Shown here piece after piece: positions 14,684 through 60,689 of a DNA stretch of 64,000 nt; within the stretch, counting starts at the first letter, position 1, and every line of letters begins with the position of its first letter. Below the pieces are notes generated by a model. That model was not told where the DNA came from. It saw nothing but the letters and a program-made list of their open reading frames with translations, and ran no database searches. The translations under genes were made by a program, and so were the position numbers. Origin of the DNA: Chiloscyllium plagiosum (lineage: Eukaryota); NCBI RefSeq assembly GCF_004010195.1, contig NC_057742.1, positions 27,420,076 through 27,484,075 of the forward strand. The letters run 5' to 3'.

Positions 14684-14780
14684 CTGAAGAAGGGTCCTGC
14701 CTGAAACGTTGACACTCTTGCTCCTCAGATGCTGCCTGACCTGCTGTGCTTTTTCCATTGCCACACTTTATCAACTCAAA
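14684..14780 (+). mobile_element. Short PLE-derived element, family 1, single arm with hammerhead-like core
   Basis: CTGAAGA agggtcctgcct GAAA cgtt, then ctcctcagatgctgcctgacctgctgtgctttttcca. Confidence 0.7.
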
Positions 14781-14789
14781 CACAATTTG

Positions 14790-16090
14790 AAAGTTCATGG
14801 CTTGGCATATCCCTCACTCAACCATCAACCCAGGGCATTGACCTGAGCTCAGTGCAGTGTATATTCCTATGATAGCATCAAACATATCTAAAAATGAGGT
14901 GTCAACCTTATGAAGCCACAATATCAGACAACTCGTGAGCCAAAGTGCAAATGCTCATAGAATTCTTACAGTGTGGAAACAGGCCCTTCTGCCCAACAAG
15001 TCCACACCAACTCTCCAAAGAGTATTCCACCCAATTACTCTACATTTACCTCTAAATAACACAGCCCTGAACACTATGGGCAATTTAGCATTGCCAATTC
15101 ATTTAATCTGTGCATCTTTGTGATTGTGGGACAAAACCAGAGCACCAAGAGGAAACCCACACAGCATGGGGGGAACATACAAATTCCACACAGACAGGTG
15201 TCCAAGACTGGAATTGAACCTGAATCCCTGGTGCTGTGAGGCAGCAGTGCTAACCACTGAGCCACCGTGCCACTGCACTTGCTAGACCAAGCCAAGCAAT
15301 CTCACAACCAATGTGTGAGACATCAGTTCTGCAGTCCTATCACATCCAGTTGTGAATGGTAGTGGATAATTAAACAACTCACTGAAAGAGGAAACTCCAT
15401 AAATATCTCCATCTCCAATGATAGGAGAGTACATATTTTCAATGCAAAAGATAAAGGTGAAGCATTCACAGAAACCTTCAAAAATAAATGTTGGGTGGAT
15501 CACCTATCTTGGCTTCCTCCTCAGATTCCAGTCTTCAACCAATTTGATTCACTACACATGATATGAAAAAACAACTAATGGTGCTGGATGCTGTGAAGGC
15601 TATGGGCCCTGATAATATTCTGGCAGCAGTACTAAAGACTTGCATTTCAGAACTTGCTGCACAAAGCAGCCAAGCTATTCCAATACAGTGACAAAACTGG
15701 CATCTAGCCAACCATGTTGAAAACTGCTCAAATATACTGTATGGAAAAGGCAGGAAAACATACCACCAATCAGTCCATGCTCGAGAATCAGTAAAGTGAT
15801 GGAAGGTGTCTTCAACAATGTTTTCACGCAGCACTTAACAATAATCTGCTCAGTGATGCTCAGTTTGGGTTCTGCTGGGGCCACTCAGCAACTGATTTCA
15901 TTACGGCCTTGGTTCAGACATGGACAAAAGAGCTGAATTGCAGGGGGAGGTGAGAGTGACAGCCCTTAACATCAAGTCTACATTTGACCAAAGTAGTATT
16001 AGGAAGCTCTGGCAAAATTAAAGTCAGTGGGCATCTGCAGGAAAATGGGTTTGACTGAGACCTGGCACAAAGGAAGGTGGTTTTGACTCT
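14790..16090 (+). mobile_element. LINE family B fragment interrupted by an HE1 SINE
   Basis: Collinear with the element encoding ORF 59425-60183 (gctatgggccctgataatattctggcagcagtactaaagacttgc = AMGPDNI). Confidence 0.85.
14957..15272 (-). mobile_element. HE1-type SINE
   Basis: Reverse complement of the 2523 element, with A/B boxes at 15210-15272. Confidence 0.9.
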
Positions 16091-16571
16091 TGACATCTAC
16101 CCTGTGGCAAATGTCACAAGAGAGTGCCTAACTCAGTGATACCTCAATAATTCATTCCACAGAAAGAACAAGAGAACTCCACAAATTGATTACATGCTTG
16201 CCAACATAAAAAATTATAACATTCTGATAGATTATCTCCAACATTCTAAATGTTTTCTTTCATCCCTACATTTTGTTGTATGACTTCAGGTTCATTCAAG
16301 TGTTTTTTGTTTTACATCAGCTGGGGATTCATCTCATGGAGACAGCTTCCATCTGTATTTTCTTCTCTGCCCAAAATCAATGAAGCGGATTTTTGCCTCC
16401 AACAATCATTGCATCCAGAATAAGCTATATTCTGCTGCTTATGTTTTTAAGCCACTTAATTTTAGGTCATTAGCCATGTGAGATTTTCTATTAATTTTGC
16501 CTTTATTGTCTTAGCTCAGCTGTAATACTACAGTGCACCAAATATTGTAAACTGAAATATGCGATATGAGA

Positions 16572-18255
16572 AGTTGTGATGTGGGTGTCACTGGCTGGCC
16601 AGCATTTATTGGCTGTCCCGAGCTGCCCTTGAGAAGGTGGTAGTGAGCTGCCTTCTTGAACCACTGCAGGCCATCTGCTGTGGGTTGCCCCACTATGCCA
16701 TTAAGGAGGGAATTGCAGGATTTTGACCCAGCGATGCTGAAGGCATGACAATATATTTCCAAGTCAGGATGGCAAGTGGCTTGGAGGGGAACTTGCAGAT
16801 GCTGATGTTGCCATGTACCTGCTGCCCTTGTCCTTCTAGATGGAAGTGTTCATGGGTTTGGAAGGTGCAGTCTAAGGATCTTTCTGCAGTGCTTCATGTA
16901 GATAGGATACGCTGCTGCTGGTGGTGGAGGGAGTTGATGTTTCTGAAATCGGGGCAAATCAAGCAGGTGACTTTGTTCTGGATGATTCCAGCTTCTTGAG
17001 TGTTGTTGGAGCTATGGTCATCCAGGCAAGTGGGGAGTATTCCATCATACTACCTGATTTGTACCTGACTTAATGGACAGGTTTTGGGGAAATCAGATGG
17101 TGAGTTACTTGCTGGAGTATTCCTAGTCTCTAACCTAGTCTTGTAGCCTCTCTGGTGAGTCCAATTAAGTTTCTAGTCAATGGTAACTCCCAGGAAATTG
17201 ACAGTGGGGGATTCCATGAAGGTCACACCATTGAATGTCAAACAGTATTGGTTAGATTGTCTGTTATTGGATATGGTCATGCCTGCCATTTTTTGTGGTG
17301 TAAATCTTAATTGCCACTTAAGCCTGGATATTATCTAAGCATTTGAACAGAGACTGTGTCAGTACCTGAAGACTGGCAAGTGTTGCTCAACATTGTGCAA
17401 TTGTGGACGACAATCGCCACATCTGACCTGATGTTGGAGAGAATGTCACTGATGAAGCAGCTGAAAATGTGGGCCTAGGACACTACCCTGAGGAACTCCT
17501 GCAGAGATGTCCTGAAGCTGAAGTGACTGACACTCCACAACCACAAGCAGCTTCCCATGTGTCAGGTATGACTCCAATCAGTGGAGAGTTTGTCCCTGAT
17601 ACCGATTGATTCCAGTTTTGCAAGGGCTCCATGATACTACATTCGGTCAAATGCAGCCTTGATGTCACTCTCACCTCCCTTCTGGAATTCAGCTCTTTTG
17701 TGCATGTTTGAACCAAGGCTGTAGTGAGGTCAGAAGCTGAGTAGCCCTGGTGGAACCCAAAATGGGCGTCACTGAGCAGGTTATTGCTGAGGAGGTGCTG
17801 CTTGATAGCACTGTTGGCAATACCTTCTCTCACTTTACTGATGAGCGAGACTAAAAAATGGGGCAGTGATTGGCCAGGGTGGATTGGTCTTGCTTTTTGC
17901 GTACAGGACATAACTGGGCAATTTTTCACATCGTTGCATAGGTGCCAGTGTTGTAATTGTACTGGAAGAATTTGGCTAGGGGAGCAGAAAGATGTGGAGC
18001 ACGCGAACTATTGCCAGAATATTGTCAGTCCATAGCCTTTGCACTATCCAGTGCCTCCCACCATTTTGTGCTATCATGTGAAGTAAGTCAAATTAACTGA
18101 AGACTGGTATTTGTAATGCTGGGGACTACTCGCGGAGGCTGAGCTGGATCCTCCACTTGGTACTTCTACCTGAAGATTGCTGCAAATACTTCAGCCTTAT
18201 TTTTTACACTGATGTGCTCAGCTCCTCCATCAATGAGGTTGGGGATATTTGTGGA
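16572..18255 (-). mobile_element. LINE family B, 3' half (RT region to tail), decayed
   Basis: ORF 17483-17929 has AIKQHLLSNNLLSDAHFGFHQGYSASDL (RT QxGF region); tail at 16575-16700 matches 7368-7525. Confidence 0.9.
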
Positions 18256-18989
18256 AGAGATGTATTATAAATGACATGTTGTTACTTGTTGGCCTGTCTA
18301 TGAAGCAGAAACTATCTCTTGCTCAACCTTGTGTACTCTTCAAGGCCTGTCCAATGCTGATAGTGAATTTTAAAAATCTAAAGCAAAAATATGAATCTAA
18401 AGAAAATTGATGGTACTGGTTTATGTTTACACTGAGGCAGATTATAAATTCAGGATTTGGTTTAGATTTCAACAGTTCGCAAAGTATTTTCACTTAACAG
18501 GAAGGTGTTTATAAGTTAAACTGAATCTCAGACCTATTAAAGTAACAAGTTTGGAATTATGTTCCAGACGGAGATACAAAAACAGGGTAACTTTCAGCAT
18601 AAGTAAATAAAACAGGGCAGGGATGTACCTGTTTGATATTAACAGGGTGAAGGGGTAATTTGAGTCTCTGGCAGGTAGTTTTCCTAGAAATGTCTCACAA
18701 TACCTATCTCGACTCATCGACTGGCTCATTGCAGAACTTAGCAATGTTTTAACAAGGTTTCTTTTAGGTTACCCTTCCTGGCAGGTAGTCTGCTGTGGCC
18801 CAAGCCAACTTTCCAACGCAATCTTCTACTCTTCAGCTTATTAATTATGCAACCGGCCTACCCAGTGCTCACCTCCTAGAATTGTTTGACTGAAGACATT
18901 TCACTACTGATGGGACTTTGCAAGTTCTATGTCACTGAGGTCATATTTAAACCCAGTTTCACAGCACTTCCTGCAAACTATGAACTGCC

Positions 18990-21129: not shown

Positions 21130-21280
21130 TGGAAGCTGAAAATACTGGAGAGGCTTTAAATCAGAAACAAAAATAAAACTCAGTAAGGGTCATTCAACCC
21201 AAAATATTAACTCTAATTTCTCTCCACAAATGCTGACAGACCTGCTGAGATTTTACAACAGTTTCTGCTTTTGGTTTGTG
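21130..21280. mobile_element. PLE-derived short element, family 3, collapsed inverted pair
   Basis: aagggtcattcaacccaaaatattaactc...ctctccacaaatgctgacagacctgctgag; related to 48255-48415 and 60291-60380. Confidence 0.55.
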
Positions 21281-22785: not shown

Positions 22786-22859
22786 CGGAAGCTATATCAT
22801 GAGCTAGGTAACCTGGGAAGAGAAAAACATTTATAAGCCCAGGTTCCACTCCTTCACTG

Positions 22860-25533: not shown

Positions 25534-27119
25534 CTATCCATTTGACCAACTAGATCTTAGTTAGAAAGGCCTTTTTTCAACGTCTACAACTTTGAGTATC
25601 AAATGTTCATAACTTCATTGCTAAATAGATACAATGACTAATTGAGAATGCTGACATGTTCACGACACTAGACTGCAATACAGTGCTGTTTTTACTTTTT
25701 TAATGTTCTCATTACACTTATTTGGACATCATTGGTTCTTCATGATTGCTCTGTTCCCAATTGAAGCATTTCTCTCTGAGTTCAGTGCACTGCTATGTTT
25801 ATGTCTTGTCAGATTAGAAGTCCCTGTCATGTATTTGTAGTGATTTACTGCTGCAACGATGGCAGGAGCAGCTTGGTGTAAGGTTTTAAGAGTGTGAGAG
25901 GAGAGTGATGGGGAATACTTAGGATTGATTGAAGAATCTGTTGTAGGATCTTAGAAATGCCAGAAATTTGGCCTTTTAGTGTCTTGACCTATCAGAATGA
26001 TTACCTTTTGAAGGTTTCAGGAATCATCATCAATGGTGGGAATTAATTGGCCAGCATCCATTGACATTTATGGATATTATTAAGTTTGAGATCCATTTTC
26101 AGTAATGATAGCATTGATGTTGTATGGAAAAAGGTCACGCAACAGAAGTCCTTGTAGGGTATTGAGCAGTTTTGGGAGGTCAGCTGTATAACGATTTACA
26201 GTCGTGTGTACAATAAGTAAAGGATATAGGTTTTTAATACATGGTCCTGCTCGAATGGGATTTAACATTAATGTTTAGTTGTAGCAACTAATAATCTTGC
26301 TTTACCAGTGGTTTTAATTAAGGCAAATAATTTTCTCAGTCTTGTTTCTATTTGACAATAATTAAGCATTGTTATTTCAATGCAATTTAGGTCAGTATAT
26401 CTTTTTTTCTTTTAATAAATACTCTTGTGGCTTTGCACTGTGCATGCCTGCAGGAAATTCTGACCGAAATCAACTCCAAGTTGTATTGCTCAGTTATGCT
26501 TCCAGTTTCCGTTAAACTTCGATTATAGAATCACAAGCATCAAATCGTCTACAAACCAGTGCAACTGGGAGCATAATAGATTTTTTTCTTCTTTGTTAGA
26601 AGTACCCCTTGATGCATTTGGAATGATAATTGTAACAAACTCAAATAATACAGCTGCAAATTGGGTCATCATCATCTTTAATATTAATACCAAATCTTCT
26701 TTCTGTGAATAACTTGTGATAAGCTTGTAAAGAAAATAATGCTGAACAATGTAATTAATGTTTTGATGAACACAAGTGAATTTCCAGCTTTAATCCTGCA
26801 TCACTAGACGAGAAACATGAGTGGAAGAGGGTTTGCATGTAAGTTGACAACATTTAAATTTGTCCATAGTTTATGTAAGTTCAACCAAGATTGCACTAGA
26901 ACCTGGGCACAATGCTAACAGAAACAAATACTCAAGGTTTGTGTAAAGTTTTCTAGATTGGGTGCCGGTTTGTCGGGATTGTGGGTATGTTTGCCGAGCT
27001 GGGAAGTTGATTTGTAGATGTTCCACCCCCTGTCTAGGTGAAAGCTTCAGTGCTTTGGAGCCTCCTGTGAAGCGCTGCTGTACAGTGCCTTCTGGAATTT
27101 ATTTGGTTTCATTTCTGCT

Positions 27120-27709
27120 AACATGATGGGGAACGTATCAACAAGGAACGCATTCTCAAACTTCTAGACCGGTGCTTGACAACGCACTTCAAATTCAACA
27201 ACCAAATATATGAGTAGATCAATGGAACTCCTATAAGCTCACCCATCTCCAGGCTCATGGTAGAAGCTGTGATGCAAAGGGTGGAACATTCAGCTCTCTC
27301 ATCAATCCAACCCAAACTCTGGATCAGATACGTAGACGACACTTGTGTTATCATTAAGAGACCACAAATTGAGAACACACACTGGATTATCAACAGCTTG
27401 CTCACAGGGATCAGATTTATGAGAGAAGAGGAAAGCAACAATCAACTCCCATTCCTTGATGTGATGGTCGAAACAACACAGAATGGTGAATGCATCACAA
27501 GAGTGTACAGGAAAGCCACACACACTGACCAGGTCCTGAACTACAACAACAAACACACAAGAGAAGCTGCATTAGGACCCTGTTCAAAAGGGCTACAACA
27601 CACTGCAGCATTCCCAATCTATGAAGGGAAGAAGAACACCTCTATAGAGTCTTCGCCAAGAACGGATATCCCCACAGCTCCACCCACAGATGCCGAACAA
27701 ACAATGTGA
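27120..27709 (+). pseudogene. Penelope reverse transcriptase remnant
   Basis: THFKFNNQIYE*INGTPISSPIS...LWIRYVDDTCVII...LPFLDVMV...VYRKATHTDQVLNY; internal stop and frameshift. Confidence 0.9.
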
Positions 27710-27872
27710 CAAGGACATGCCATGACCTGACTCACTAACCTCGCTACCTCACATACAGAATGTTTTGGAACTGACAGCCAGACTTCTCTGACCATTGGGA
27801 TTCATGACAGCCCATAAACCGACAGCCAGGCTTAGACAATAACTCGCCAGAACAAAGGCCCCGATACTCATC

Positions 27873-28217
27873 ATGTGCAAGACTGTGATTTACAGGATTC
27901 CATGCAAAGACTGCACAAAACACTATACAGGGCAAACAGGCAAACACCTAACAATCCGCATCCACGAACACCAACTAGTCACTAAACACCACGACCGGCT
28001 GTCCCTAGTAGTCATACACACAGATGACAGGGACCACAAATTCGACTGGGACAACAAAACAATCATAAGACAAGCTAAACAGAGGACAGGCAGAGACGTC
28101 CTAGAAGTTTGGCACTCATCCACAGACTCCATCAACAAGCACATTTACCAGGACGCAATATATCAACCACTACAGCAAACAACCAGAACCAGTGCCCGGA
28201 AGCAGCGGGAACGGTAG
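27873..28217 (+). pseudogene. Penelope GIY-YIG endonuclease domain
   Basis: VIYRIPCKDCTKHYTGQTGKHLTIRIHEH...H.FDWD...LEVWH...SIN matches the PLE GIY-YIG pattern with CxxC. Confidence 0.9.
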
Positions 28218-29399
28218 CAAATAAATCCCAGAAGAGAGAGTACAGCAGCGCTTCACAGGAGGCTCCAAAGCACTGAAGATGTCACCGAGACAGGGGACAA
28301 CATGTCTGCAAATCAACTTCCCAGCTCAGCGAACATACCCACAACCACAAAGACCAAATACTGTAGAACCTTCATGAACTCAATGGAACATACCTTGTGT
28401 TATGAATTCCTTTTGCTATATCCATTTTGTACTGTGTGAGCCATCAATCTATGAATATTGTAACACTCAAAGAATACGCAGTTCCAAGGACTTGCTACAT
28501 TTCACTTTTCCAAAATATTAGTTCCATTCAAAACTACCTCAGAACAAGGTGCTGAAAGGTTTTCGGTAGGTTACTTAGAACAGTTCAACAGGTTATTGAA
28601 CACATCAATAGGCAGTTGAACAGAAATATTGAGAGGAGAAATTTGTTACCTTGGGCTGTTAATCAATCAGGTACTTCAGAGCATAGACAAGAGGCTCTAT
28701 CCCAAAAAGATGTTTCTGTAAAAGGTTCCAAGCTTTCAAGACTCAGGAGAGGTCCAGAGAATCAGAAGTGAGTTTAACATTTGGGGTTAGGGCTCAAGAA
28801 AAGTCCTGTTTGTAAAGAATTGTTCAATGCAGCTGAGATTCAGTTGAAGGATATACACAAGCAGTTTTTGCTTTGTTCAGTAGAGCAATATTTCAGCTTA
28901 GAGAAACACATGGGCTGCACCAGCTCAGTAAAGCTAGCTGTCTGTGAAAAGTGGGAATTGAACCTGTGATAAGGCACTAGAGTGCAGTTTCCAAAATCCA
29001 AGAGAGTGCAACTCATTAGGAAGAATAAACAACCCAAATATGAGCAATCATTGAGGCAGTTAATAATGGAAAGGCATTTTAGGGACTTCCCATGCCAGGC
29101 CTTTAACAGTGACCAATTGGAATCCCTTGTTAGATTTTAATGAAACCCACAGTTTCATTAACATTGGAGGGAGGGGGGGCATTCAGTTGCTGAGAGATTG
29201 ATGGGATCTTTCTTGATCATATTTGTTATTTGATGTTAGCAATGTTCAAACACAATGCATCTGCTACCCATATTTATCCCAGTGTAGTTTTAATTTCAAA
29301 TTAGGATATAAATTGGACTCATACTGTAGATTGCTATTTTTCTAACTGTGCATAGTAAACTCTATTATTGTTTGTTCAAAACATTTGTGAATTGCTTGG

Positions 29400-29862: not shown

Positions 29863-30394
29863 CTTTCTTAATAAGTACCTGGGACCTACATTTTGTCCAC
29901 TTCAAATGAAAGTTACTGGTTCATAAACAGTTTGTGGTGGCCCCCTCCAGGACGGTAACAGCTATTTGCCATAGTTTAATCATTTCCAATATAAGGAGTG
30001 CAGAAGATCAGCGTTGATCAAACAAATCAAAGCAGCAGGATCAATGGATCAATGAAGGATGACGTCCAACATTCATTGGTCCTGGGCAGCAGTGTAAAAC
30101 AAGAGAAAATGAACACTTTTTTTTTATTTCCAGTTCCATCAAGATTTACTTTGTTCCCATCAACAAGACTGAAAGCTGGACAGAGAAATCATGATACGGG
30201 GTCCCAGGAGGAAAGCTATTAACAATAATCATCACAGTTATTTATTCACATTTAAGACTGTTAGAACATGTTCTTTATTTGAAAGAAAAATTATTTAATT
30301 GAATATTTAATTGCAGTGTTGATTGAAGTTCTGGCTCATGAATAATTATGATGACAACCAAAAGTCTTTGGACATATGGATTCACAATGATTGA

Positions 30395-30720: not shown

Positions 30721-31469
30721 AATAGGAACATACAAAGGTAAAATACAGTGGGTTGTTCCCAACATTGAAAAAGACCTTGCCAGACTTCATGCAATTTTCC
30801 CACATTTCTCACCATAGCCCATGGCATTCAGCATCCCATAACATTTTGCTCCATCTGTTTAAGTTGGGAAACAGAGACAATGTACAGCTGTAATAGGCTG
30901 AATGTCTTTTACATCTTTGTGACCTGATTGTAATTTAATAATATCAACTCAACCTAGAACATTTTGAAGGGGCTTTTAATGCCTCATGTCCATCCGTCCA
31001 TCGTTATCAATTTTAAAAAGGTTTTATGGAAGGTATCTTGAAACTGCACTCCTTGTTTAAGGGCACCATTCCAGAGTCAGCAATGAGCCACTGTCTTCCC
31101 AGTCTTTAGTTATCATGTTCACACTTGTTTAATCAGCAGACAATTCTTTCTTTTATATATTTAATTAAACTTGACATGGAAATAAATTTAATCATTGTGA
31201 TTTAGGAATTGAGGACAAGCACCAGGAAAGGGCAGAAACCAATGTCTCTCAGAAAATGCCACTTGAACTTTATAACATATCTGTCAGGAACTGTTAGAGG
31301 GAATTGAATACTCACTTCCACAGGTATTCTCTAATCATTAGAAATCCATATGTCCAAAGACATTTGGTTTTCATCATAGTTATTCATGAGCCAGAACTTC
31401 AATAAACACTGCAATTAAATATTCAATTAAATCATTTTTCTTTCAATTAAAGAACATGTTCTAACAGTG

Positions 31470-35602: not shown

Positions 35603-36849
35603 GGGGGTGGGGTGGGGTGGGGGGGTGGGGGTGGGGTCCTTCCTCCTGCCTTTATACCTTACACCTCCTTCAGTTCTGTCTACATATTCTCAGCTCCTGA
35701 GCTCTGGCAGCACCATCACAATGAAGATGCTAAAGAGTCAGTGACATTGTTACTGAGTGCATTGTTCAGCATGGGAGAGAGTGTCCAGTCACCATCAAGA
35801 GGAGTCTGAGTTGTTAGAGGACAGGGTGTAGAACCTCCATAATCTTCCACTGATACTCTATTTTCACTGTCATGCTGTGAACCCCGTGACATTGCACCCC
35901 AGCAGCTTCTATATGAATAGGTGACCTACCCCTGAAACCTCCCAGTAAGGATACAGAAACACTCTCCAGCAAATTCAAAACTCATCATCTCCAAAATCAC
36001 TCTGGAGAGTCTTCAGACCATTGTCAATGTTAGGAGTTCTTAAAAACTACATTCGTTGAAATGAAATGTTTTCCATTTAAGCAATGCAAGGACAGGATCC
36101 ATCTTACAGTTTCACACTTGAAGCTCACCCAGCAATTGATGAACTCGATAGCTGGCATCATGATGCCCCATCACTCGGGGTTGTTTTCCACTCAACATGA
36201 GATAGAGAAGGTGGGCAATGGCACACTGAGTCCTAACATAATGGATACTCTAGGCCTCCTGATACAATGAATATCACATCCCCTTTATCCCTTTCACAAT
36301 GGCCTTCAATTAGTGCTGTTTATTTACCAACTCAACAACCAGAGGAAACAGCTGGTGAGAGAAGTTGAGAATTGGCCAAGATGGCAGCTTGGTCTGATGT
36401 CGCGAAAGGAGGAACAGTTGGTATAACAGAATTTTGCTTCATTAGCATTGTTTGAACCTCGGACTCAGCAATTTTTTTGTGCTCCTACTGCAGATCAATT
36501 TAAGGAAAGTGCGCTGATTATATGTATCAGTAGTCATTGGCTTTCCATGTTTTTTCCTGTTTTAGATCCTTATTTTCATGGTTCACTGATCAACTGCTTC
36601 ATTCCAAGTAAAAGAATGAAGACTTAAATGTAGAGCAACATAGACCAAATTCTATTCATTCTCAGGATAGGGACAGCACAGGGCAATACTGACATTTATA
36701 GTACATTTTTTTACCCTTGGGAAGTTGGTCGTAAGACAATCTTCTTTCCCGTTTGTAATTGGTATAGCCATGTCATGTGGAATATATAACATGCACTTCA
36801 ATGGTTGTGTACAAATGTCCAGCTTTTCAATGAATCATTTGAATTGCTT

Positions 36850-37064
36850 TCTAATCCATTAGCTCACTCTTAAATGTTAGGTCAATGTGAACTCTAATCC
36901 ATTAGATCACTCTTAAATGTTAGGTCAATGTGAATTCTAATCCATTAGCTCATTCTTAAATGTAAGGTCAGTGTGAATTCTAATCCATTAGCTCATTCTT
37001 AAATGTTAGGTCAGTGTGAATTCTAATCCATTAGCTCACTCTTAAATGTATGGTCAGTGTGAGC
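36850..37064. repeat. 43-bp tandem repeat, 5 copies
   Basis: Unit tctaatccattagctcactcttaaatgttaggtcaatgtgaa(c/t) starts at 36850, 36893, 36936, 36979 and 37022. Confidence 0.95.
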
Positions 37065-38634: not shown

Positions 38635-38860
38635 GGGCCAAAATGAGGACTGCAGATGCTGGAGATCAGAGTCGAGAGTGTGGTGCTGGAAAAGCACAGC
38701 AGGTCAGGCAGTATCCGAGGAGCAGGAGAATCGACATTTTGGGCAAAAGGCCTTTATTAGGAAAAGCCATTCCTGATGAAGGGCATTTGCCTGAATCATC
38801 AATTCTCCTGCTTCTTGGATGTTGCCTGACCTGCTGTGCTTTTCCAGCACCACACTCTCG
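38635..38860. mobile_element. PLE-derived family 1 inverted dimer with hammerhead-like cores
   Basis: Arms meet at ...tttattaggaa aagcca ttcCTGATGAagggc...; flanked by gcaatgttaacagt / gcaatgggaacagt (12/14 direct repeat). Confidence 0.85.
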
Positions 38861-39660
38861 GCAATGGGAACAGTACCAGGCACAGCCAGCTTCCTGATCC
38901 TAAAACCAAAGTCTCAACCTGCACTATGTACCAGAGATATTCCAACTCCAGTGGTTTTGTTCAGGGCATGCTATAAAGGCAGTTTCAATGGGTTTCTCCT
39001 GTCAAGACTTCTCACTGTGAAGAACAATAATCTTCATCCTTCGTGCACCCTTCTGATGTGACAAGGGGGTCACCAACTAGAGTTCAGGACTTGGAATATT
39101 AGCTGACTTTTCTCAGCTGTGAGGTGATTCAGAGATATAATGTAATGGCCTTCACCAGACCATAACATCTATCTGACACAAAGCATGATATAATGAATAG
39201 GATGATAATTGAGTCATTATTATGCCAAAATTATTATTTTAACTTATCTGTAGATATCTCCTCAATTAATTTAAATTAATATAAGCCTTCAGCAGGGAAA
39301 ATAAGATTTGTTTCCTTTTAAAGTTTCTGTATTATGAGGTAACAAAAGAGAATATAACATGTTATAAAATATTTTGTGGCTGGTAACCATATATTTAACT
39401 TTGAATAATAGCTTATTTTGTTCTTGAATGGAAGAGATTGAAAAAAAGATGATGAAGATCTTAAAATTGGAGAATAATAGATATTGATGATGCAAAGTAT
39501 TTAATGGGGAAAGTCGGTGCTTGACTAATAGGTCAAGATATAGGAAATAAGGACTGTTATTACTTTGGGTTGATCAATATAAATGAGTAATTGGAAACCT
39601 TCAACCATGAGGGATGTCCATAAAGAGTTAGAGCAAATCAATGATTGTGTGCTCTACTCA

Positions 39661-40048
39661 TGGTCAAATATCACATGCCACCAGGTTATCATCCAACAGG
39701 TTTATTTGAAATCACAAACTTTTGGAGCATGATTCCTCTGTCAAGTGAAGTGGAGGGAAGTGGACAGGCACAGAATTTATAGATGACGAATTCTTTGAAA
39801 GATAGTTCCAGGTGATCAAGAGTGTCAAAAGATCGTACAAATGGTGTGAATGGAGTGTCAACAAGTGGAATAACAAATCTTTGCAGGTGATTGGAAGTTT
39901 CAAAAGGTGTGAGTAAAGTGTCAACAGTTAAATAGCAAGGAAAGGGATGACCTATGATCTGATTAATTGAAGCAGTGAGATAACTACAAAAAATCAAAAA
40001 TAAGATGGTGCTAGAGACACCACAATCCAACACTGGCACCTCCACATA
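39661..40048. mobile_element. PLE-derived family 2 element
   Basis: ccaggttatcatccaacaggtttatttg start and inverted terminus tccaacactggcacctccacat; TSD ctctactca at 39652-39660 and 40049-40057. Confidence 0.75.
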
Positions 40049-43384: not shown

Positions 43385-43551
43385 AGTTAAAAATCACACA
43401 ACACCAGGTTATAGTCCAACAGGTTTAATTGGAAGCAAAAAGAGCGTCGCTCCTTCATGCTAGTGTGCTTCCAATTAAACCTGTTGGACTATAACCTGGT
43501 GTTGTGTGATTTTTAACTTTGTACACCCCAGTCCAACACCGGCATCTCCAG
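43385..43551. mobile_element. PLE-derived family 2 inverted dimer with collapsed centre
   Basis: agttaaaaatcacacaacaccaggttatagtccaacaggtttaattggaagca and its exact reverse complement flank the remnant gagcgtcgctccttcat. Confidence 0.9.
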
Positions 43552-44356
43552 TTCATTCTCCTGGTTATCCTAACTACGTTGAGTAATATGTCTTGGCCAA
43601 GTGTATAGTTTAATCAATTCTCAGAGGTTTCAATTTTTCAATATTGTGGAAAACTTTATTTGGGTTTTATTTATCTCTTATTTCTGTGGTCGTGATCTGG
43701 AGAGGATGTGTGTGATCATCCATTTTTGCAAATGCATAATCTCCAAATCCTCCTGCACTTTGGTAACATTGTTACATTTAATCTGATGAACTGAAGGGAC
43801 TGACCAAGAGCTAGACTTGAACTGATTTCAAATCTTTTTACTGACATTTAGTTTTGGCTATTCTTGTAACTTTAGTGTTTTTACTCCCTTAATTTTTGAT
43901 GGGATTCTAAGAGTTTTAATCAATGAATCAAATCAACGAGCCATTCACAACATTTAAGACTTAAATTATTTTTATAATGTTCAGAAATATACAGAGAAAA
44001 ATGCATAAGACGCATACCCGTAATTGTTGCAGGAGGAAGTTGAATTGAAGTATGGTTTATAAATTAGATTTTCAGGCAGTCCTTGTATTTTTCAAGTCAT
44101 ATTAAAAAGAACAATATCAAATTTGCCTCTTGAATCTTAAAATAGATATTGATTAGAAGCATTATTTCCCTGTTTGTAAAGGGATATGTTGACGATTCTC
44201 AAAGTGATTAGTTGAGATAAACAATAGAAATGTCAAAGACCTGTAACAAAAATAAGAATGGATAGCATTTATTTGAGAAGGTATACTTAACATTTCAACT
44301 GGCAATCCCATATGGGATTGGTTCCTGTTTCGAATGTTTTTGGAATGTGGAAACCC

Positions 44357-44447
44357 GAGCTGAAAAAAGTGTTGCTGGAAAAGCGCAGCAGGTCAGGCAG
44401 CATCCAAGGAGCAGGAGAATCGACGTTTCGGGCATAAGCCCTTCTAG
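44357..44447 (-). mobile_element. PLE-derived family 1 single arm
   Basis: Minus strand gaagggcttatgcccGAAAcgtcgattctcctgctcc; stem II and GAAACGTC intact, CTGATGA truncated. Confidence 0.85.
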
Positions 44448-47549: not shown

Positions 47550-47746
47550 GCAGACAGAAGTGGGAACTGCAGATGCTGCAGATTAGAGCCAAGATTAGAG
47601 TGGTGCTGGAAAAGCACAGTAGGTCAGGCAGCATCTGAGGAGCAGGAAAATCAAGGGCTTTTGCCCGAAATGTCGATGTTTCTGCTCCTCGGATTCTGCC
47701 TGACCTGCTGTGCTTTTCCAGCACCGCTCTAATCTTGACTCCGATC
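47550..47746. mobile_element. PLE-derived family 1 inverted dimer
   Basis: Inverted arms around gggcttttgcccGAAAtgtc; TSD cacagtcag at 47541-47549 and 47747-47755. Confidence 0.85.
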
Positions 47747-47889: not shown

Positions 47890-48415
47890 AACAGAGAACT
47901 GTGGATGCTGGAGATCTGAAACAAACTAGAAGCACCTGGGGCAGCATGGTGACTCAGTGGTTGGCACTGCTGCCTCACAGCACCAGCGACCCAGGTTCAA
48001 TTCCAACCTCAGGCTCCAGACCGTCTCTGGAGTTTGCGCATTCTCCTCATGTCTGTGTGGGTTTCCTCCCATCACTCAAAGACGTGCAGGTAGGTGAATT
48101 GGCCATGCTAAATTGCACATAGTGCTGCAGAGCTGTGTATGTCAGATGCATTAGTCAAGGGTAAACGTAGGATATGGGAATGGATCTCGGTGGGTTTCTT
48201 GTTGGTGTGGACTTGTTGGGTCAAAGGGCCTGTTTCCACACTGTAGAGATTCTAGTTAATGAAAAAATTGCTGGAGGAAATGCAGCATCTGTGAAGCAAA
48301 AAAAAAGTTAACATTTTGAGTCCGGTGATCCTTCTTGTCCTGAAAAATGTTAGCTCTTAGTTCTCCAGCAATTTCTGTTTTTGTTTATTTCAGATCTCCG
48401 TCATCTACAGTTTTG
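47890..48415. mobile_element. PLE-derived family 3 inverted pair interrupted by an HE1 SINE
   Basis: aactgtggatgctggagatctgaaa at the left; ttcagatctccgtcatctacagtt at the right. Confidence 0.65.
47938..48255 (+). mobile_element. HE1-type SINE
   Basis: A/B boxes gtgactcagtggttgg and aggttcaattcc; tail gggcctgtttccacactgta. Confidence 0.9.
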
Positions 48416-48419
48416 TTTT

Positions 48420-48800
48420 GAAACTCATGAGATGCTACATTCTATCCATTTTCTGACATGAATCAGAAACCTGGACAATAAGTAAAGATCTGGAAGAAAG
48501 TGGAGGCCTTTGAAATATGGATGCTGATACATCTGCACAAAATTCCGGATATACATATCCTGATAATAGATGAAGAGGTATTTGAAATTCCAAAACCAAA
48601 GAACTCTTAAAAAGTGAGATCCAAAAAAGAAAATATTGGTACTTCAGCCATTTGATCAGAGAGCAAACTGGAGGGCAGCAGAAAGGGGAATTGTCCTAGG
48701 CATAGCTGGATGACTGTTATCACAGAATGGGGGTGAACTACATTGATGTGTGAAGAATGTGCAAGGCAGATAAGTGTGGTACACCATGACAGGTGTTCCA
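48420..48800 (+). mobile_element. RTE-clade LINE 3' fragment, decayed
   Basis: ESETWTISKD...KVEAFEIWML resembles the RTE C-terminal motif YGxETW...IEAFEMW. Confidence 0.65.
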
Positions 48801-48893
48801 GTAGGTGTAGCCATAAAAAGCTGCAGTTAGAACTGAAATAAAACAAAGAACTGTGGATGCTAGAAATTTGAAATGAAAAACAGAAATCTATCT

Positions 48894-49175
48894 TGGAGAA
48901 AGTGAGGACTGCAGATGCTGGAGATCAGAGTCGAAACGTGTGGTGCTGGAAAAGCACAGCTGATCAGGCAGCATGCAAGGAGCAGGAGACTCATCGTCTC
49001 AGGCATAAGTCCTTTATCATATTACGTATTTACATAAAACATTATATTACATATAACATTTACATATTAATAAACCGAAACCTGATGAAGGGCTTATGCC
49101 TGAAATGTCGATTCTCCTGCTCCTCAGATGCTGCCTGATCTGCTGTGCTTTTCCAGCACCACACTCTTCTACAGC
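48894..49175. mobile_element. PLE-derived family 1 inverted dimer with AT-rich spacer
   Basis: Right arm cCTGATGAagggcttatgcctGAAAtgtcgattc; TSD aatctatct at 48885-48893 and 49176-49184. Confidence 0.88.
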
Positions 49176-49736: not shown

Positions 49737-50282
49737 GTCATGATGTGGAGGAGCCGGTATTAGACTGGGGTGGACAAAGTTAAAAATCACACAACACCAG
49801 GTTACAATCCAACAGGTTTATTTGGAAGCACTAGCTTTCTGAGTGCTGCTCCGTCATCAGGTAGCTGTGAAGCAGGATTATAGGACACAGAATTTATAGC
49901 AAAAGATTACAGTATCACGTAACTGAAATGATATAGTGAACAAACCTAGGTTGCTGTTAACCTCACGTCTTTAATGCATAGTCTGAGTTGAGGTGTCACT
50001 TATTTTTATAAAATCTTAAGTTAACTCGAGAAGGTGACTTAAAAGAAGTTCTGGGATTTACATATTAAGGAATCTACAACCCATTCTAAAAGATGAAGAA
50101 CTTAATAGCAATCTAGGTTTGTTCAATATATCATTCAGTTTCATGACACTGTAATCTTTTGCTATAAATTCTGTGTCTTATGATCCTATTTCACAGTTAC
50201 CTGATTTGGAGTGCAGCACTCCAAAAGCCAGTGGTTCCAAATAAACCTGTTGGGCTATAACCTGGTGTTGTGTGATTTTTAA
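49737..50282. mobile_element. PLE-derived family 2 long inverted dimer
   Basis: Arms about 49780-49955 and 50110-50282; minus-strand CTGATGAcggagcagcactcaGAAAgctagtg; TSD tttcagaattatt at 49724-49736 and 50283-50295. Confidence 0.88.
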
Positions 50283-51691
50283 TTTCAGAATTATTCACAT
50301 TCGGTGCTATCAAGTCACTTTGCATTGCTCCATGGAGATATGCTATGCAATGAGATAGGGTTGATAAAGTTGATTTCGATAATGGTTCCCAAATTAATGA
50401 GCACACAAAGAAAAACTGTAATACTTAGAATCCTAAAAGATATTGCATAAGAACGTGTAGAGAGGAGACTTGTGCAGAAATATAATAAAATAAATTGGAT
50501 AGTTTACATTTTGAATCAAATTGATAACCAAGGTTAATATTGGATTAAACTATTAACGTAACTTACAAATTCTAAAATCCACAAAGACTGTCAGTAATCA
50601 ATTAATTTTGTACAGTCATCAGGATTGTTAAATAGAAAATAGATATTATACAAGAACTGGCAAGCTGCTCTGCTGCCCATTCCACTAAACAGATGATACT
50701 TGAAATTAAAAAAAACAATTGAGGCTTAAATATCATTTTTTGTGAAGGTTCCAATCCTTCTTATTCTAGCCCCTTGAGTACAGTTCCCAACTTACATTCA
50801 TTTGCTTCCATCATTTTTAATGTTGCCCTTTAGCCACCAAATTCCAGCATCTGGAATTTTCTTCTTTAAAGTTCTATCTATGACTTTACATCCAAGACCA
50901 CCCTTAATTTTCCCTCTGATCTAGCTTCAGTTAATTGCTCCTTGCGCATCTTGCTTTATTGCGAGTGTCTTGTTTTCTATGATAAAGGTGCTATGGCAGT
51001 GACTAATGTAGCAAAAATGGGTTTATTAAATTATATTGAAACCAGGCTACTCTGAGTGCAATTAAGTAAATTCCTGTTTGGTGCTGATACTTAAAGACCA
51101 TCAGCAGAAATTAGAAACTTTCTTTGATCTACATTAAATGTATTTCAACTTCAAGCAACATAGGGTGTTATAAATTAGAGACAATTATGGCCTTAAGGAA
51201 CATCAATAAACTGCACAGATGCCGACTCAGTGATCTGTGGAATCATATAGAATCAGTTACATTTTTACACTTTATTAAGTCAAGGCTTATTGTGCCGTTC
51301 ATAATTCAAAGGAAAGGATGTTCTTCCAGTTTTATATTTTTGTTCCAGTTTCATTCTGTCACTAGGTCATATTTTCTTTCAGGGTTCCATGTGAAAATTT
51401 TAATTATTGTGAAGTAGGTCATGAAGTTAGAGCTTGCTAATAACTGGAACAATCTTGATTGTTCTTTATTGAACTGTCTGTTCCATGTGCTCTTTAATCA
51501 TTAAATGCCTTACAGACGCGAAGATGCATTGACTATGTATATACATAGATTTATTATAAAAGAACAGAAGGATCTAAATTCAAGGTTAATTGACCTGGGA
51601 AACATCCCTTCTAATCTGCATGAAATTCAATCATAATCAAAGCTCATGAACGATCAGTCACTTGTGTTAGAATCATTGTTAGATGCATGTT

Positions 51692-54560: not shown

Positions 54561-55299
54561 GGCACTGCTAATCTGTAAGGTCCATAGCAGGGAATCTATT
54601 TCCATTTTCATTTCATTCTTTTATTCTTAAATTGGTTGAATCCCTTTTAAAGTGTTCTGTTAAAAATGTAGAAGGGCTATGATTCTGATCAAGAGGCTGA
54701 AAAGAGACGCAATTGTAAGATTTTCTTTGAAAGATTTCAGACAGTATCTCAGCATCTCTCTGCCATTAGTAAGGCACATGTATGACTTTAACTCACTCAT
54801 CCTCTCGGGATGAACAATAACTCAATTTCATCCCATTCCCCAAACTTTAGAACTATGTTAATTGTAGTCCTGTGCTAATTCTTGTGTTGTCCGTATGTAA
54901 TATAAGTGAGGTACCTGGATTCTATTCACATGAAGATGTCTAGTGGCTTTATTTACAAATATACTAGTACAGACATTATAGAAAATCACCTGACACAGCC
55001 TTTGTCTAAGGTGCTGTGACGTAGAGAGACCATGGTTCCTGGCCATATAATAACATCGGTTTCCTTGGCTCATCGGTATACTGAGCTCCTTGAATGGATA
55101 TCATTCTTAAAGTGTTGAGTACAGCTTTTTATAGCAGAAGGGTTTGAAATTCTACCAGTAAAACCACAGAAGCCTTAGATATTAGCAAAAATAGCTATAC
55201 AGAAATAGGAATAGTAACATTTCTGAATACAGAAACAGTTTATGAATAAATAAATAAATAAATATAGAAGTCTCAGAGCCTAAGTCACTTTGGTGGTTT

Positions 55300-56800: not shown

Positions 56801-57384
56801 AATGTTCTGTTGACTCGACATATTTTCTGATTGCAGCCTGCTCTCTTCTTTCTCCGTTTGAATATTGATGCGCTTTTTCTTATTTACAGCTGTGCCTGTT
56901 GTTCCTTTATATTAAAATAGACTTTAGAGTCAGCTGACTGCCTGCCTGGCTTTATCCAGCTCAAAGTTACTCACAGTTTGTGAAGAAAATCTTATTCCCT
57001 TCCCTTTATTTATTTCATTCTATTTTCTGTTTGTTAGGAATTTCTAGATTGCTCTTGTATCTTGTTTACTGCTGGTCTTCAAGTCTGTATCATTGCCTTC
57101 CTTATTCTTTCTTTATAATCATCACTGCCCAGCAGATAGTCATTTCTTGTGCTACCTGCATGTATATGAATGAGATACTTGAATTCCTTTTAATGTGAAG
57201 ATCTTAAAAGGGCATCATTCTTAAAATCATAATACGTAGTGCAAGCATGATTGCTATGGTTACAAGCAGCTGGCTGAAAAAAACGAGAACCTGGGACAAT
57301 TGCTGATCTTTATGGCTAAGTCATTGTTTGACAAAGGTAAGTAAAAAGCACCACTGCACAATCTGATTAACAATCGTACCTCGA

Positions 57385-57830
57385 CTTCCCGAGTTGTGTC
57401 ATGAGGAGAGATTATACAAACGAGGCCTGTTATCTCCAGAAGTTTGAAGGTTAAGGGGTAATCTAATGGACGGCTTCAGATATTAATAGGAAAAGACAGG
57501 GTAGATAAAGATAAACTATTTCCACTGGTTGGAGATTCTGGAACCATGGGCCATAGTCTGAGAACAAGGGCTAGGCCAGTCAAGAGAGATGTTGGGAAGC
57601 ATTTCTACACACAAAGGATGGTAGAGATTTGGAACTCTCTTCCACATACGGCAGTGGATGCTGGATCAGTTGATAGTTTTAAATCTGAGAAAGCTAAATT
57701 TTGGGGTAAGCAAAGATATTAAGGGATATGGGTCAAAGGCAGGTACATGAAATTAGGTTTCAGATCAGCCATGAACTCACTAGCTGGAGAATAAGATTGG
57801 AGGGGCTAGGTGGCCTACTTCTGTCTATAT
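57385..57830 (+). mobile_element. CR1 LINE 3' fragment
   Basis: ttctacacacaaaggatggtagagatttggaactctctt; tail ggaggggctaggtggcctacttctg. Confidence 0.85.
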
Positions 57831-58814
57831 AGTCCAATAAAGAGTGATGATTTATGGAGCATCATCAAATGATTTTGCTGTAAGTGTGACATTGTGTATC
57901 CATTTCATGTTCAATTTGAATATATTATTGAGATAATCACAACAGACTACTTCCAGTTTCATCCACTGCTGTGTACTGTGATCAAGGTAAGTCCCTGGGC
58001 AAACATTACCTTCTTTTGACTACCTATTCAGTTTGAATAACTGCTCTGTTCATGTTAGACTTCATCTTACCATTTTGTCATTTGAATCAAATCCTAACTC
58101 AAAACAGTGTCATTCCAAAATGGAGTTTGGGACAGGAAAATTTTGATTTATCCAGCTGCATGGTCTCAGAGCAGCTTATAATATTCAGGTCATAATTAAC
58201 TGCAAGAGCATCTTCTGCGTGACAATTAGGCCCCGATTCTCATGAAGTTGTGATGGCTCCAGAGACCTTGGTTAATGGTGTGTGGGACATTTTCGCCCAC
58301 ATATCCAGCTGGTACTTTTATCGCCAGGAGGGAAACGGGGGCGTAATGTGAATCACGCAGCTGAGAAACCTGAACTCAGCAGGACTATTTAGAAATAGCG
58401 CTGGGTCTAAATAGACTCCCTTTTACTCTGGTCTAAAGGGCTTAGCCTGGAGTTATGGGATCATAGATTTATGCAGGAGATCTGGCACTCTTGAAGGGCA
58501 GACAATGTCTATTTAAGTGTCATGATCTGAAGTTATTTAAATGCCTAGCGCTTTGAAACTGAAAAGAAAACCTAAACTCTGTCTATCAGTCAGAGCAAGA
58601 CAAAAGATTTTGATTGACAAGACATCCAGTTTAGCTTAGAAAAAACAATCTGTTGCTGCAGTTTCAATAGAGTTCATTGTTAATGTTTTCCAAGGGCTAT
58701 AATATCAGCAGAATCCATTATAAATGTTTGGTAGAGTTTCAAAACATCCAAAGATACTTAGCTTGCCACAGGACTGAACTCACATTTTATTGATAGGTGA
58801 ATGGCAATGGTGCA

Positions 58815-60213
58815 AAATGTACTCTGGGTGGGGGATATCAATGTCCACCATCAAGAGTGGCTCGGCAGCAGCATTACTGATCAAGCTGGTTGAGTCCTAA
58901 AGGATGTAACTGCTAGACAGGGCCTGCAGAAGGTGATAAGCAAACCAACAAGAGGAAAACACATACTTGACCTCATCCTTACTAACCTGCTGGCTGCAGA
59001 AGCATCTGTCCATGACTGTATCGGTAAAAGTGGCCACCGCACTGTCCTAGTGGAGACAAAGTCCCGCCTTCACATTGAGAATAACCTCCATAGTGTTATT
59101 CACCGTGCTAAATGGGACAGACTTCAAACTGATCTAGCAGCTCAAGACTGGGCTTCCATAAGGCACTAGGTAAAAACAATGACTGCAGGTGCTGGAAACC
59201 AGAGTCTAGATTAGAGTGGTGCTGGAAAAGCACAGCAGTTCAGGCAACATCCGAGGAGCAGTAAAATCGACGTTTCGGGCAAAAGCCATTCATCAGGAAT
59301 ACTTCCATAAGGCGCTGTGGGCCATCAACAGCAGCAGAACTATACTCCAGCACAATCTGTAACCTCATGGCCTGGCATATCCCCCACTCAACCATTACCA
59401 TCAAGCCAGGGGATCAACCCTGGTTCAATGGAGCCAGGGGATCAACCCTGGTTCAAACTGGGCGTCACTGAGCAGGTTGTTGCTGAGCAGGTGCTGCTTG
59501 ATAGCACTTTTGATGCTCTCTTCCATCACTATACTAATGATGCAGAGTAGACTGATTGGGCAGTAATCGGCTGGGTTGGATTTGTCCTGCTTTTTGTGTA
59601 CAGGACATACCTGTAAAATCTTCCAAATTGTCGGATAGATGCCAATGTTGTAACTGTACTGGAAGAGCTTGGCTAGGGGAATGGCAAGTTCTGGAGCACA
59701 AGTCTTCAGTACTATTGCTGGAATGTTATCAGGCCCCATTGCCTTTGCAGTAACCAGTGCCTCCAGCCATTTCTTGATATCACGTGGAGTGAACCCAGTT
59801 GGCTGGAGACTGGTATCTGTGAAGCTGGGGACCACTGGAGGAGCCTGAGATGGATCATCCACTCGGCACTTCCGACTAAAGATTGTTGCAAATGCATCAG
59901 CCTTACCTTTTGCACTGATGTGCTGGGCTCCTCCATCATTGAGGATGGGGATACTTGTAGAGCCTCCTCCTCCAATGAGTTGTTTAATTGTCCACCACCA
60001 TTCACGACTGGGTGTAGAAGGACTGCAGAGCTTAGATCTGATCTGTTGGCTGTGGGATCGCTTAGCTCTGTCTATCACTTGCTGTTTATGCTGTTTGGCA
60101 CACAAGTAGGTGCTGTTCCAGCAATAAAGTTTCAGCTTGGCACACAAGTAGTCATGTTTGGTAGCTTCACCACATTGACACATTATTTTTAGGTATGCCT
60201 GATGCTGCTCCTG
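58815..60213. mobile_element. Rearranged LINE family B: endonuclease part on + (58815-59456), downstream part inverted (59457-60213)
   Basis: + strand WVGDINVHHQEW...PTRGKHILDLILTN...SGHRTV (APE); - strand ORF 59425-60183 AMGPDNIPAIVLKTCAPEL...YCPISLL...SDAQF. Confidence 0.9.
59168..59301 (-). mobile_element. 134-bp family 1 monomer with hammerhead core, inserted in the LINE
   Basis: Minus strand starts tattcCTGATGAatggcttttgcccGAAAcgtcgat; TSD cttccataaggc(a/g)ct at 59153-59167 and 59302-59316. Confidence 0.9.
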
Positions 60214-60689
60214 TTTCTAGTGTGATAGAGGAAAACAACTTGTAGTCTTAAAGGAAGAAATTTGTTTTAAACAATATGGAGTTTATTGAGTTCTGAAGAA
60301 GGGTCACTGAACCCAAAACATTAAATTCTGCTTACTCTCCACTGATGGTGCTGCTTTTTCAACAATTTCTGTTTTTGTTTGTAGTTCATTGCATGATAAG
60401 AACTATATACAAGTTGCACTTTTGTGTCAGATGTTGTGACAGAGACTATGAGGAAGACCAGGAGCAGCATCAGGCATACCTACTCCAATGACGGCTTGGC
60501 AGAGAAAGGCTTAGGATCTCTAGGAAGTAAGTCCTACAAACTGAATCTTCCTCATCAGTGGAGAGTAAGCAGAATTTAATGTTTTGGGTTCAGTGACCCT
60601 TCTTCAGAACTCAATAAACTCCACATTGTTTAAAACAAATTTCTTCCTTTAAGACTACAAGTTGTTTTCCTCTATCACACTAGAAACAG
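60211..60689. repeat. 137-bp inverted duplication (60211-60347 vs 60553-60689)
   Basis: Direct comparison shows one mismatch; includes a family 3 core ctgaagaagggtcactgaacccaaaacatt. Confidence 0.95.

Follow-up and report, generated by a model that had tools for sequence, protein, structure and literature searches.

Short repeats built on a hammerhead ribozyme core are abundant in the genome of Chiloscyllium plagiosum. Our analysis indicates that they are very probably dead, 5'-truncated 3' ends (pLTRs) of two endonuclease-bearing lineages, A and B, that belong to the Penelope-like elements (PLEs). The class as such is ordinary; what stands out is that the repeats show a marked tendency to start just before the hammerhead motif.

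Repeats in the 64-kb window

The window is a 64-kb stretch of Chiloscyllium plagiosum NC_057742.1. An earlier note had listed 13 coordinates in it and assigned them to three families, here F1, F2 and F3 (its families 1, 2 and 3). All 13 are real, and each holds a piece of its named family. However, they are not 13 separate elements: a single insertion (49738-50285) accounts for both 49830 and 50200, one in each arm, leaving 12 insertions. Similarly, the three motifs stand but three lineages do not: F1 and F3 are sister families whose homology extends outside the core, each profile matching the other, and we therefore recognize two lineages, A (F1, F3 and further subfamilies) and B (F2). Nor are the families complete at three, as a fourth had been missed at about 26933-28350.

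14684-14767, + strand: lineage A (F1/F3) pLTR fragment with a variant stem II, beginning at the core
21185-21279, + strand: F3 pLTR fragment beginning at +6; CUGA box absent, GAAA decayed
26933-28350 (bounds approximate), + strand: fourth family, a different kind of PLE, 5'-truncated, that retains remnants of RT and GIY-YIG, a decayed hammerhead core at 28273 and an inverted pLTR (core at 27050, - strand)
38638-38860, both strands: F1 head-to-head pair; tailed - arm (38638-38766) and short + arm with core at 38772 and mutated GAAA box; candidate 6-bp duplication
39659-39782, - strand: decayed F2 pLTR fragment
43386-43552, both strands: F2 head-to-head pair; with the inversion junction, neither arm has a whole core
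44352-44444, - strand: F1 pLTR fragment beginning at +4/+5, without CUGA
47558-47745, both strands: F1 head-to-head pair; + arm without CUGAUGA, - arm from near +29; 9-bp duplication
48262-48420, both strands: decayed F3 head-to-head pair
48898-49167, both strands: F1 head-to-head pair that includes AT-rich filler; the + arm, whose core is at 49082, shows two changes of CpG type and lacks the 5' arm of stem I; 9-bp duplication
49738-50285, both strands: single F2 insertion with two arms; tailed - arm with core at 49860 and a broken closing pair, + arm with core at 50200 partly deleted; 13-bp target duplication
59172-59301, - strand: F1 single copy from -5 to the tail end, flanked by a 12-bp target duplication; its core, at 59296, carries a single change (G10.1 to U)
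60288-60385, + strand: F3 pLTR fragment; core at 60293, GAAA decayed

As had been reported, no window copy is fully intact, and a complete hammerhead is present in 0 of the 12 insertions. The copy at 14684, previously read as the F1 consensus, is a variant instead. It is the sole window copy that passes our strict descriptor; its closing pair is G.U, and it lacks the stem I 5' arm because the fragment starts at the core. The suggestion that loss was mostly by CpG decay does not hold, since five copies (21185, 43440, 44420, 47655 and 50200) lost core parts by truncation, inversion junction or deletion. The scattered window copies are probably inert.

Half of the insertions (6/12) are head-to-head pairs, and all six combine a long and a short arm. 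Target duplications of 9-13 bp flank 4 of the 12 insertions; at the other 8 no exact duplication of at least 7 bp was found, which counts against a PLE origin. Both arms of 49738-50285 continue into PLE 3' UTR. A tblastn search of the 12 insertions for PLE proteins (RT, GIY-YIG) was empty. The Rfam search returned 7 matches at E<=5 with no hammerhead among them, and two miRNA matches below the gathering score were artefacts of the inverted pairs. A local inverted duplication (60553-60689) has copied the fragment at 60288-60385 along with its flank.

Minimal hammerhead cores and their abundance

The hammerhead-core repeats are real and far above chance. Exact core patterns matched the genome 19,480 times for F1, 16,636 times for F2 and 207 times for F3, while each reversed pattern gave 0. 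The high abundance that the earlier note supposed is borne out by these 36,323 exact matches for three patterns, compared with about 4,000 in coelacanth and 9,000 in Xenopus in the account of Cervera & De la Pena 2014 (PMC4209133). Our statistics rest on an unselected sample of 40 stretches from large contigs, about 382 kb. In its 382,150 bases the strict minimal-hammerhead descriptor gave 18 matches, whereas the 10 Markov controls gave 0-1 apiece. Extrapolation from the 382 kb yields about 160,000 descriptor-intact cores (95,000-250,000, Poisson error only) and about 950,000 pLTR arms. Core counts are well above the frog and coelacanth figures, and therefore host transcripts in number carry such motifs on either strand.

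The proposed minimal type I architecture was likewise confirmed. CUGANGA and GAAA boxes, U16.1 and a cleavable H17 are present at the family level, and in the window in one copy only. A single base separates positions 9 and 10.1 (A in F1-F3, U in the fourth family), and the closing pair G10.1-C11.1 is G-C in all main classes. Stem III is a loopless palindrome, as described before: pair 15.2-16.2 is C-G in F1 and F3 and G-C in F2, with no loop 3.

The stems differ yet keep pairing, and stems I-III covary between subfamilies. Stem I pair 1 is C-G in 23/30 F1 and 24/30 F2 loci and U-A in 23/30 F3 loci. At stem II pair 2, the partner of a 5' A is U in 52, C in 43, A in 4 and G in 1 of the first 100 of 2,162 rows, and all 52 A-U rows belong to one subfamily; at pair 4, the partner of U is A in 74, G in 23, C in 2 and U in 1 of the first 100 of 1,276 rows. 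The covariation represents few independent events, its counts are plain tallies, and the multiple alignment had F2 and the 11-nt hairpin rows out of register.

Helix I has 2-4 bp. In the main F1 class it consists of 2 bp, a U.U and 1 bp, with the U.U at position 3 in 28/30 F1 loci; F3 and one F1 subfamily have 4 bp and F2 has 3 bp. When 11 copies were folded, stem II formed and the full hammerhead was absent in most, and co-folding of two strands did not yield a dimer stem III. An upstream anti-ribozyme strand is not a general feature, since among the 11 folded copies stem II was lowered in L024, L006 and L035 but not in L029, L052 and L075.

These cores resemble the minimal hammerheads (min-HHR) reported genome-wide in the pLTRs of metazoan PLEs, mostly as truncated copies (PMC4209133). 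They share the core boxes, the one base between 9 and 10.1, G10.1-C11.1 and the loopless palindromic 15.2-16.2, as well as several covarying families per genome, found mostly as singles from truncated PLEs, and opposite-strand pairs. In contrast to the Schistosoma min-HHR of that account, stem II is 4-6 rather than 7-8 bp and stem I 2-4 rather than 4-5 bp; for min-HHR helix I it gives 4-5 bp, and 2 bp in D. virilis. We found no mention of sharks there. The earlier note had allowed that novelty would fall if these families were already annotated as ribozyme-bearing pLTR fragments, and in substance this is so, through this 2014 class.

Coding Penelope-like elements as the probable source

The PLE origin that had been suggested was supported, since the cores sit in the pLTR of coding PLEs. 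In long copies the order is RT, zinc-finger linker, GIY-YIG, 3' UTR, minimal hammerhead, about 55-60 nt and an optional tail of ~35 nt. In partial tandems (pLTR, tail, ORF start; L124 and L025/L026) it is this tail through which the ORF is entered. The F2 core lies downstream of the GIY-YIG C-terminus, on the same strand, in 24/30 loci; these were picked by a GIY-YIG protein piece, one being the query locus, and 4 of the 6 misses have more than 400 N in the next kb. The link is gap-free in L122, L124, L126 and L127. For F1, the core follows RT in 10/12 RT-picked loci, every one across an assembly gap, and an ungapped GIY-YIG-to-core link is present in L029. It counts against our reading that the F3 parent is known from one GIY-YIG-like remnant read by eye (L075) and from pLTR homology to F1.

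The lineage A ORF matched Pfam RVT_1 at 33.2 bits, above the cut-off. Against the assignment, its GIY-YIG match (19 bits) is below the cut-off and Pfam gave no family for three lineage B pieces. In the Atlas, the lineage B ORF has neighbours (scores 0.94-0.97) with HTH_animal, GIY-YIG and RVT_1. Searched against PDB sequences, the lineage A RT had 0 matches at E<=1. RT followed by a C-terminal GIY-YIG is present in long copies elsewhere in the genome with broken frames, and no intact full-length ORF was recovered for lineage A or B. L129 was rejected as a full element, its two same-strand cores being separate insertions.

By eye, translations of L029, L122 and L136 contain a CX2-5CxxC linker, CCHH in the EN and a DKG motif, as defined in PMC8557442. 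They resemble the Neptune and Nematis EN+ PLEs described there (Craig et al. 2021), which have RT, a CX4CxxC linker and, at the C terminus, GIY-YIG with CCHH and DKG, and also show partial tandems, an inverted 5' copy and a 30-40-bp tail at one end. Unlike those reference elements, ours are known without an intact ORF. The vertebrate range suggests the clade Neptune.

A further likeness is to Poseidon PAc of the green anole, as described by Frangieh et al. 2024 (PMC11167929), in which the hammerhead lies shortly upstream of two tail-bounding 3' ends and there is no sign of cleaved RNA as template. However, PAc belongs to a different clade and its ORF begins inside the hammerhead, whereas here the first ATG comes after the tail in F2 and about 40 nt beyond it in F1. 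In their optional tails, head-to-head pairing and target duplications the repeats agree with PLE anatomy as published (PMC8557442, PMC3846280, PMC11167929).

A shared 5' boundary and the origin of short copies

Short arms make up 90 of the 100 scored in the unselected sample. The 3' ends of copies form two classes, at about +81..93 and +117..126 in F1 and at +82..88 and +120 in F2. Head-to-head pairs were long+short in 17 of 20 classifiable cases, long+long in 2 and short+short in 1 (p 0.001); 6 further pairs had one arm too short to class. Target duplications of 9-16 bp accompany a share of copies.

Among F1 arms that reach the core, 42/51 end in the interval -10..+5, a 16-fold excess, as do 7/7 F2 and 6/8 F3 arms. 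Single F1 arms alone gave 16/25 (13-fold), and this is the cleaner test because the reference is capped at -10 for overlapping pairs. Profile ends at -24..-31 were overlapping-arm artefacts and were re-mapped. Random truncation fails to account for so sharp a boundary, which counts against our preferred explanation. Of the idea of a short element, this much survives: in most copies the 5' boundary coincides with the beginning of the core. We found no published description of this boundary, nor of a fixed one in the account of PAc (PMC11167929). The boundary does not derive from a spliced upstream exon, since the flanks of 27 single arms share only one 10-nt match and one local duplicate. At the cleavage site 5' ends show no excess (3 F1 ends at +27..+31, ratio 2.1, p 0.22), which argues against cleaved RNA as the main template.

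The earlier note had regarded the repeats as non-autonomous, retrozyme-like PLE derivatives; a standing as independent families is not supported. Like metazoan non-LTR retrozymes as described in PMC7229834 and bioRxiv 2026.07.22.740005, they are non-coding and PLE-related with a type I hammerhead, and the latter source proposes that retrozymes derive from pLTRs and finds them in one chondrichthyan. Retrozymes, however, repeat in tandem, each unit of 150-450 bp carrying a canonical hammerhead with a helix III loop and contacts between loops 1 and 2, and are processed to circular RNAs that are then reverse transcribed. Here we see dispersed singles and pairs with minimal cores (loopless helix III, 2-4 bp helix I), no tandem arrays in the window or the 40 unselected stretches, and in those stretches only 2 close same-strand neighbours, both inside complex insertions. 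Circles should also leave ends at the cleavage site, where ends do not gather. In longer copies, coding DNA for GIY-YIG/RT is contiguous with these cores, and several subfamilies have long copies. Origin as retrozymes is thus highly improbable and already largely refuted for these copies.

The predominance of short arms and their common boundary would also be expected if the copies behaved like SINEs, with an internal promoter, transcription from about -5 and re-mobilization in trans by the PLE protein. The flanks upstream of boundary copies are unrelated, and words at -4 in F1 and F3 resemble the initiator consensus. Published work describes a promoter inside a PLE and pLTRs that act in trans (PMC2377424, PMC3846280). 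Nevertheless, several subfamilies include UTR- or ORF-linked long copies, no examined short copy passes its tail into common non-PLE sequence, the 3' extents ending close to +130. An RNA run from a related organism (poly(A) single-cell, a weak test) covered both strands, with no start pile-up listed; 96% of its 1,397 reads continue into unlike flanks, only opposite-strand joints being listed, and a second raw sequencing run gave no reads. We consider a SINE-like origin quite unlikely. It is also unlikely that the motif here never was catalytic, or has ceased to be, and is a protein-binding or promoter element that retains the hammerhead shape. The short stem I with its U.U and the folding results are in keeping with such a motif, as are the 8/9 frog dimers that remained uncleaved and the anole PLE, where cleavage depends on protein and insertion in vitro can do without cleavage (PMC11167929). 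But four families preserve the boxes, the additional base that follows A9, the G10.1-C11.1 pair and a cleavable triplet while the stems covary, and related motifs cleave weakly as dimers.

With the repeats read as truncated PLE 3' ends, work on the anole PLE suggests how they could arise. The PLE protein would nick both target strands, and cDNA would be primed at either of two internal RNA sites, with or without the tail, usually ending just past the hammerhead. One cDNA would give a single copy of ~90-135 nt, and two would give a head-to-head pair with one arm tailed and the other untailed. The template would be mostly uncleaved RNA, and the hammerhead would serve the parent element through weak, dimer- or protein-assisted cleavage.

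A candidate explanation for the boundary itself is run-off at an RNA 5' end. It is conceivable, if doubtful, that the boundary at about -5 is such an end and the run-off strong-stop product the main product of transposition. The pLTR promoter would then fire at the 5' arm of stem I, and RT would prime internally 90-125 nt downstream and run off, the product going in either alone or as a palindrome of two cDNAs (in all, roughly a million arms in the genome). If so, the short copies would be a distinct PLE by-product that may itself re-mobilize, and transcription would be seen to start at the boundary, with uncut RNA as the in vivo template. PLE transposition is poorly understood, and these copies supply in vivo statistics that any mechanism must explain: the 5' boundary, one tailed and one untailed arm, and no ends at the cleavage site.

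At the F2 ends that fall at -9, microhomology with the short inverted arm may contribute (L148, L177).

Hammerhead cores in the window and across the genome

The earlier note described three families of hammerhead-core repeats, here F1, F2 and F3, at 13 positions of the window. We found repeat pieces at all 13, which correspond to 12 insertions, 6 of the 12 being head-to-head pairs. The note had correctly recognised minimal hammerheads of the type carried by Penelope-like elements (PLEs), and the motif is real. It also stated that no copy is fully intact, and indeed core, stem II and stem I never occur together in the 12 window insertions. Additional small F3 tail fragments, outside the note's list, lie at 47894-47925 and 48844-48888.

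In the 3.56-Gb genome the exact core pattern matched 19,480 times for F1, 16,636 times for F2 and 207 times for F3, and each reversed pattern matched 0 times. A sample of 40 unselected 10-kb stretches, placed at fixed coordinates and totalling 382,150 non-N bases, was then searched with profiles and contained 107 arms, that is, pseudo-LTR (pLTR) copies standing singly or in head-to-head pairs (73 F1, 25 F3 and 9 F2). A strict hammerhead descriptor recovered 18 cores in this sample versus 0-1 in each of 10 Markov controls; in the window it recovered 1, at 14684.

Both boxes, the one base after A9, the G10.1-C11.1 pair and the loopless 15.2-16.2 palindrome are kept in all main classes. This class scan does not test stem II because it required a paired stem II, and the stem II counts that follow are unconditioned. 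With A at pair 2, the first 100 of 2,162 matches had U opposite it 52 times, C 43 times, A 4 times and G once. All 52 A-U rows carry U7 and are one subfamily with a double change; those with C as partner probably derive from the common form by a single mutation. Where pair 4 has U (first 100 of 1,276), A was the partner 74 times, G 23 times, C twice and U once. In stem I, pair 1 is C-G for F1 (23/30) and F2 (24/30) and U-A for F3 (23/30), and pair 3 in F1 is U.U (28/30). Covariation is thus present, resting on a handful of events, and stem I itself is a weak helix. In folding, stem II forms and the whole motif seldom does; the dimer stem III was absent from folding of two strands. Dimer cleavage was reportedly described in a 2017 paper. 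Numbering the C of CUGANGA as 0, positions -28..-1 of the youngest F1 subfamily (L006, L024) can, in folding, base-pair with the core and so reduce stem II, a pairing missing in some families.

Protein-coding parent elements

The copies extend upstream by variable lengths. At one locus elsewhere in the genome (L029) a GIY-YIG endonuclease (EN) region, with a Pfam score of 19 bits that is below the cut-off, and a 3' UTR run ungapped into an F1 core. Twelve reverse transcriptase (RT) loci were fetched from 150 listed matches, picked for strong scores or long frames. Ten of these 12 have a same-strand F1 core downstream, with an N gap between in every case; the remaining 2 also have gaps. The RT of the F1-linked loci matches RVT_1 above the Pfam cut-off. 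F3 belongs to the same lineage (A): F3-F1 homology reaches past the core, and a GIY-YIG-like remnant lies upstream of F3 at L075. For F2 (lineage B), among the 30 loci that best matched a GIY-YIG C-terminal query, 24 have the core 298-1,436 nt downstream, and L122, L124, L126 and L127 contain RT, EN and F2 core gap-free. No Pfam family matched the lineage B pieces; Atlas neighbours of the protein carry HTH_animal, GIY-YIG and RVT_1. In their matched parts, the lineage A and B proteins share 39% and 29% identity. Both contain, by eye, DKG, a CX4CxxC linker and CCHH, which excerpts of PMC8557442 give as marks of Neptune/Nematis PLEs. In L124 and L025/L026, partial tandems with internal deletions, the tail continues into the ORF start.

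The window repeats are pLTR fragments of coding PLEs, a known class, rather than new retrozymes. Excerpts of PMC7229834 and bioRxiv 2026.07.22.740005 describe retrozymes as tandem arrays that have canonical cores and form circular RNAs; in contrast, no tandem array was found in the window or in the 40 sampled stretches, and the cores are of the minimal type. According to PMC4209133, minimal hammerheads are widespread in pLTRs, where truncated PLEs have left them as singles and as opposite-strand pairs, and their cleavage as dimers is weak. Passages of PMC6155905, PMC2377424 and PMC3846280 were also consulted. Among the papers listed by an open-access library, we found none on shark PLE hammerheads, nor on the fixed 5' boundary described below.

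Ends of the copies and the 5' boundary

The 3' ends fall into two classes about 35 nt apart, and this interval is the PLE tail; in the anole element, according to part of PMC11167929, the tail spans two internal priming sites. The sample contained 26 same-family pairs, 20 of them classable: 17 long+short, 2 long+long and 1 short+short (p 0.001). For F1, 67 arms were scored at the 5' end and 64 reached +45.

5' ends of F1 arms (of 64)
+45..34: 1
+33..25: 3
+24..6: 9
+5..-10: 42
-11..-45: 1
-46..-200: 5
beyond -200: 3

The rate of ends in -10..+5 is 16 times the rate elsewhere, for a bin picked after the data were seen and with overlapping pairs capped at -10, so the figure for single arms alone (16/25, 13-fold) is safer. 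F2 (7/7) and F3 (6/8) arms end in the same bin. Upstream flanks of copies ending at the core start have no kinship, and several such copies adjoin target duplications. The cleavage site had no excess of 5' ends (p 0.22). Reads of a related organism have the same step in depth, on both strands, where the core begins; their loose ends are mixed (301 reads, agreement 0.45), and no pile-up of starts was listed. These reads come from copies embedded in host transcripts.

Domain order, tail, pairs, duplications and boundary are the observed part of the mechanism. By analogy with the anole element, both target strands would be nicked and cDNA primed internally; cDNA synthesis would stop just past the hammerhead, and one or two cDNAs would integrate. 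Such a stop may, at less than even odds, be an RNA 5' end near -5; F1 and F3 contain initiator-like words. Excerpts of PMC2377424 and PMC4209133 report an internal promoter in a fly element, although its transcripts begin about 120 nt upstream of the hammerhead. A stop imposed by protein or structure is about as likely as an RNA 5' end. What probability remains goes to joining driven by microhomology, which can be seen at F2 -9 and where the arms of pairs meet.

A fourth family and other repeats

A fourth hammerhead family, overlooked in the earlier note, lies at 26933-28350 inside a truncated PLE that keeps RT and GIY-YIG remnants and an inverted pLTR. By eye this PLE is Poseidon-like, and no linker finger was seen in it. 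Stem II of the fourth family has 6 bp with one inner mismatch, and its core gave 504 exact matches genome-wide (control 0).

Other repeats in the window were as follows.

60190-60689: local inverted duplication of recent origin (137 nt, 99%) that covers host flank and part of the F3 element, its two copies separated in part by another short inverted piece; a template switch or an assembly artefact
30257-30392 and 31333-31468: inverted repeat of 136 nt, AT-rich (93%), the intervening ~940 nt including LINE-like sequence; perhaps a fold-back element or a DNA transposon
5500-6957: 27-bp tandem array flanking a 582-N gap on both sides
36849-37062: 43-bp tandem unit x five, 93% matches
17486-18255, 59428-60216 and 13629-14054: LINE-type RT fragments, by eye

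The window holds several more dispersed repeat families. Elsewhere in the genome the hammerhead-bearing families are often nested or adjoining (L004/L032, L035/L036, L054, L071, L139), including an F1 copy inside an F1 ORF.
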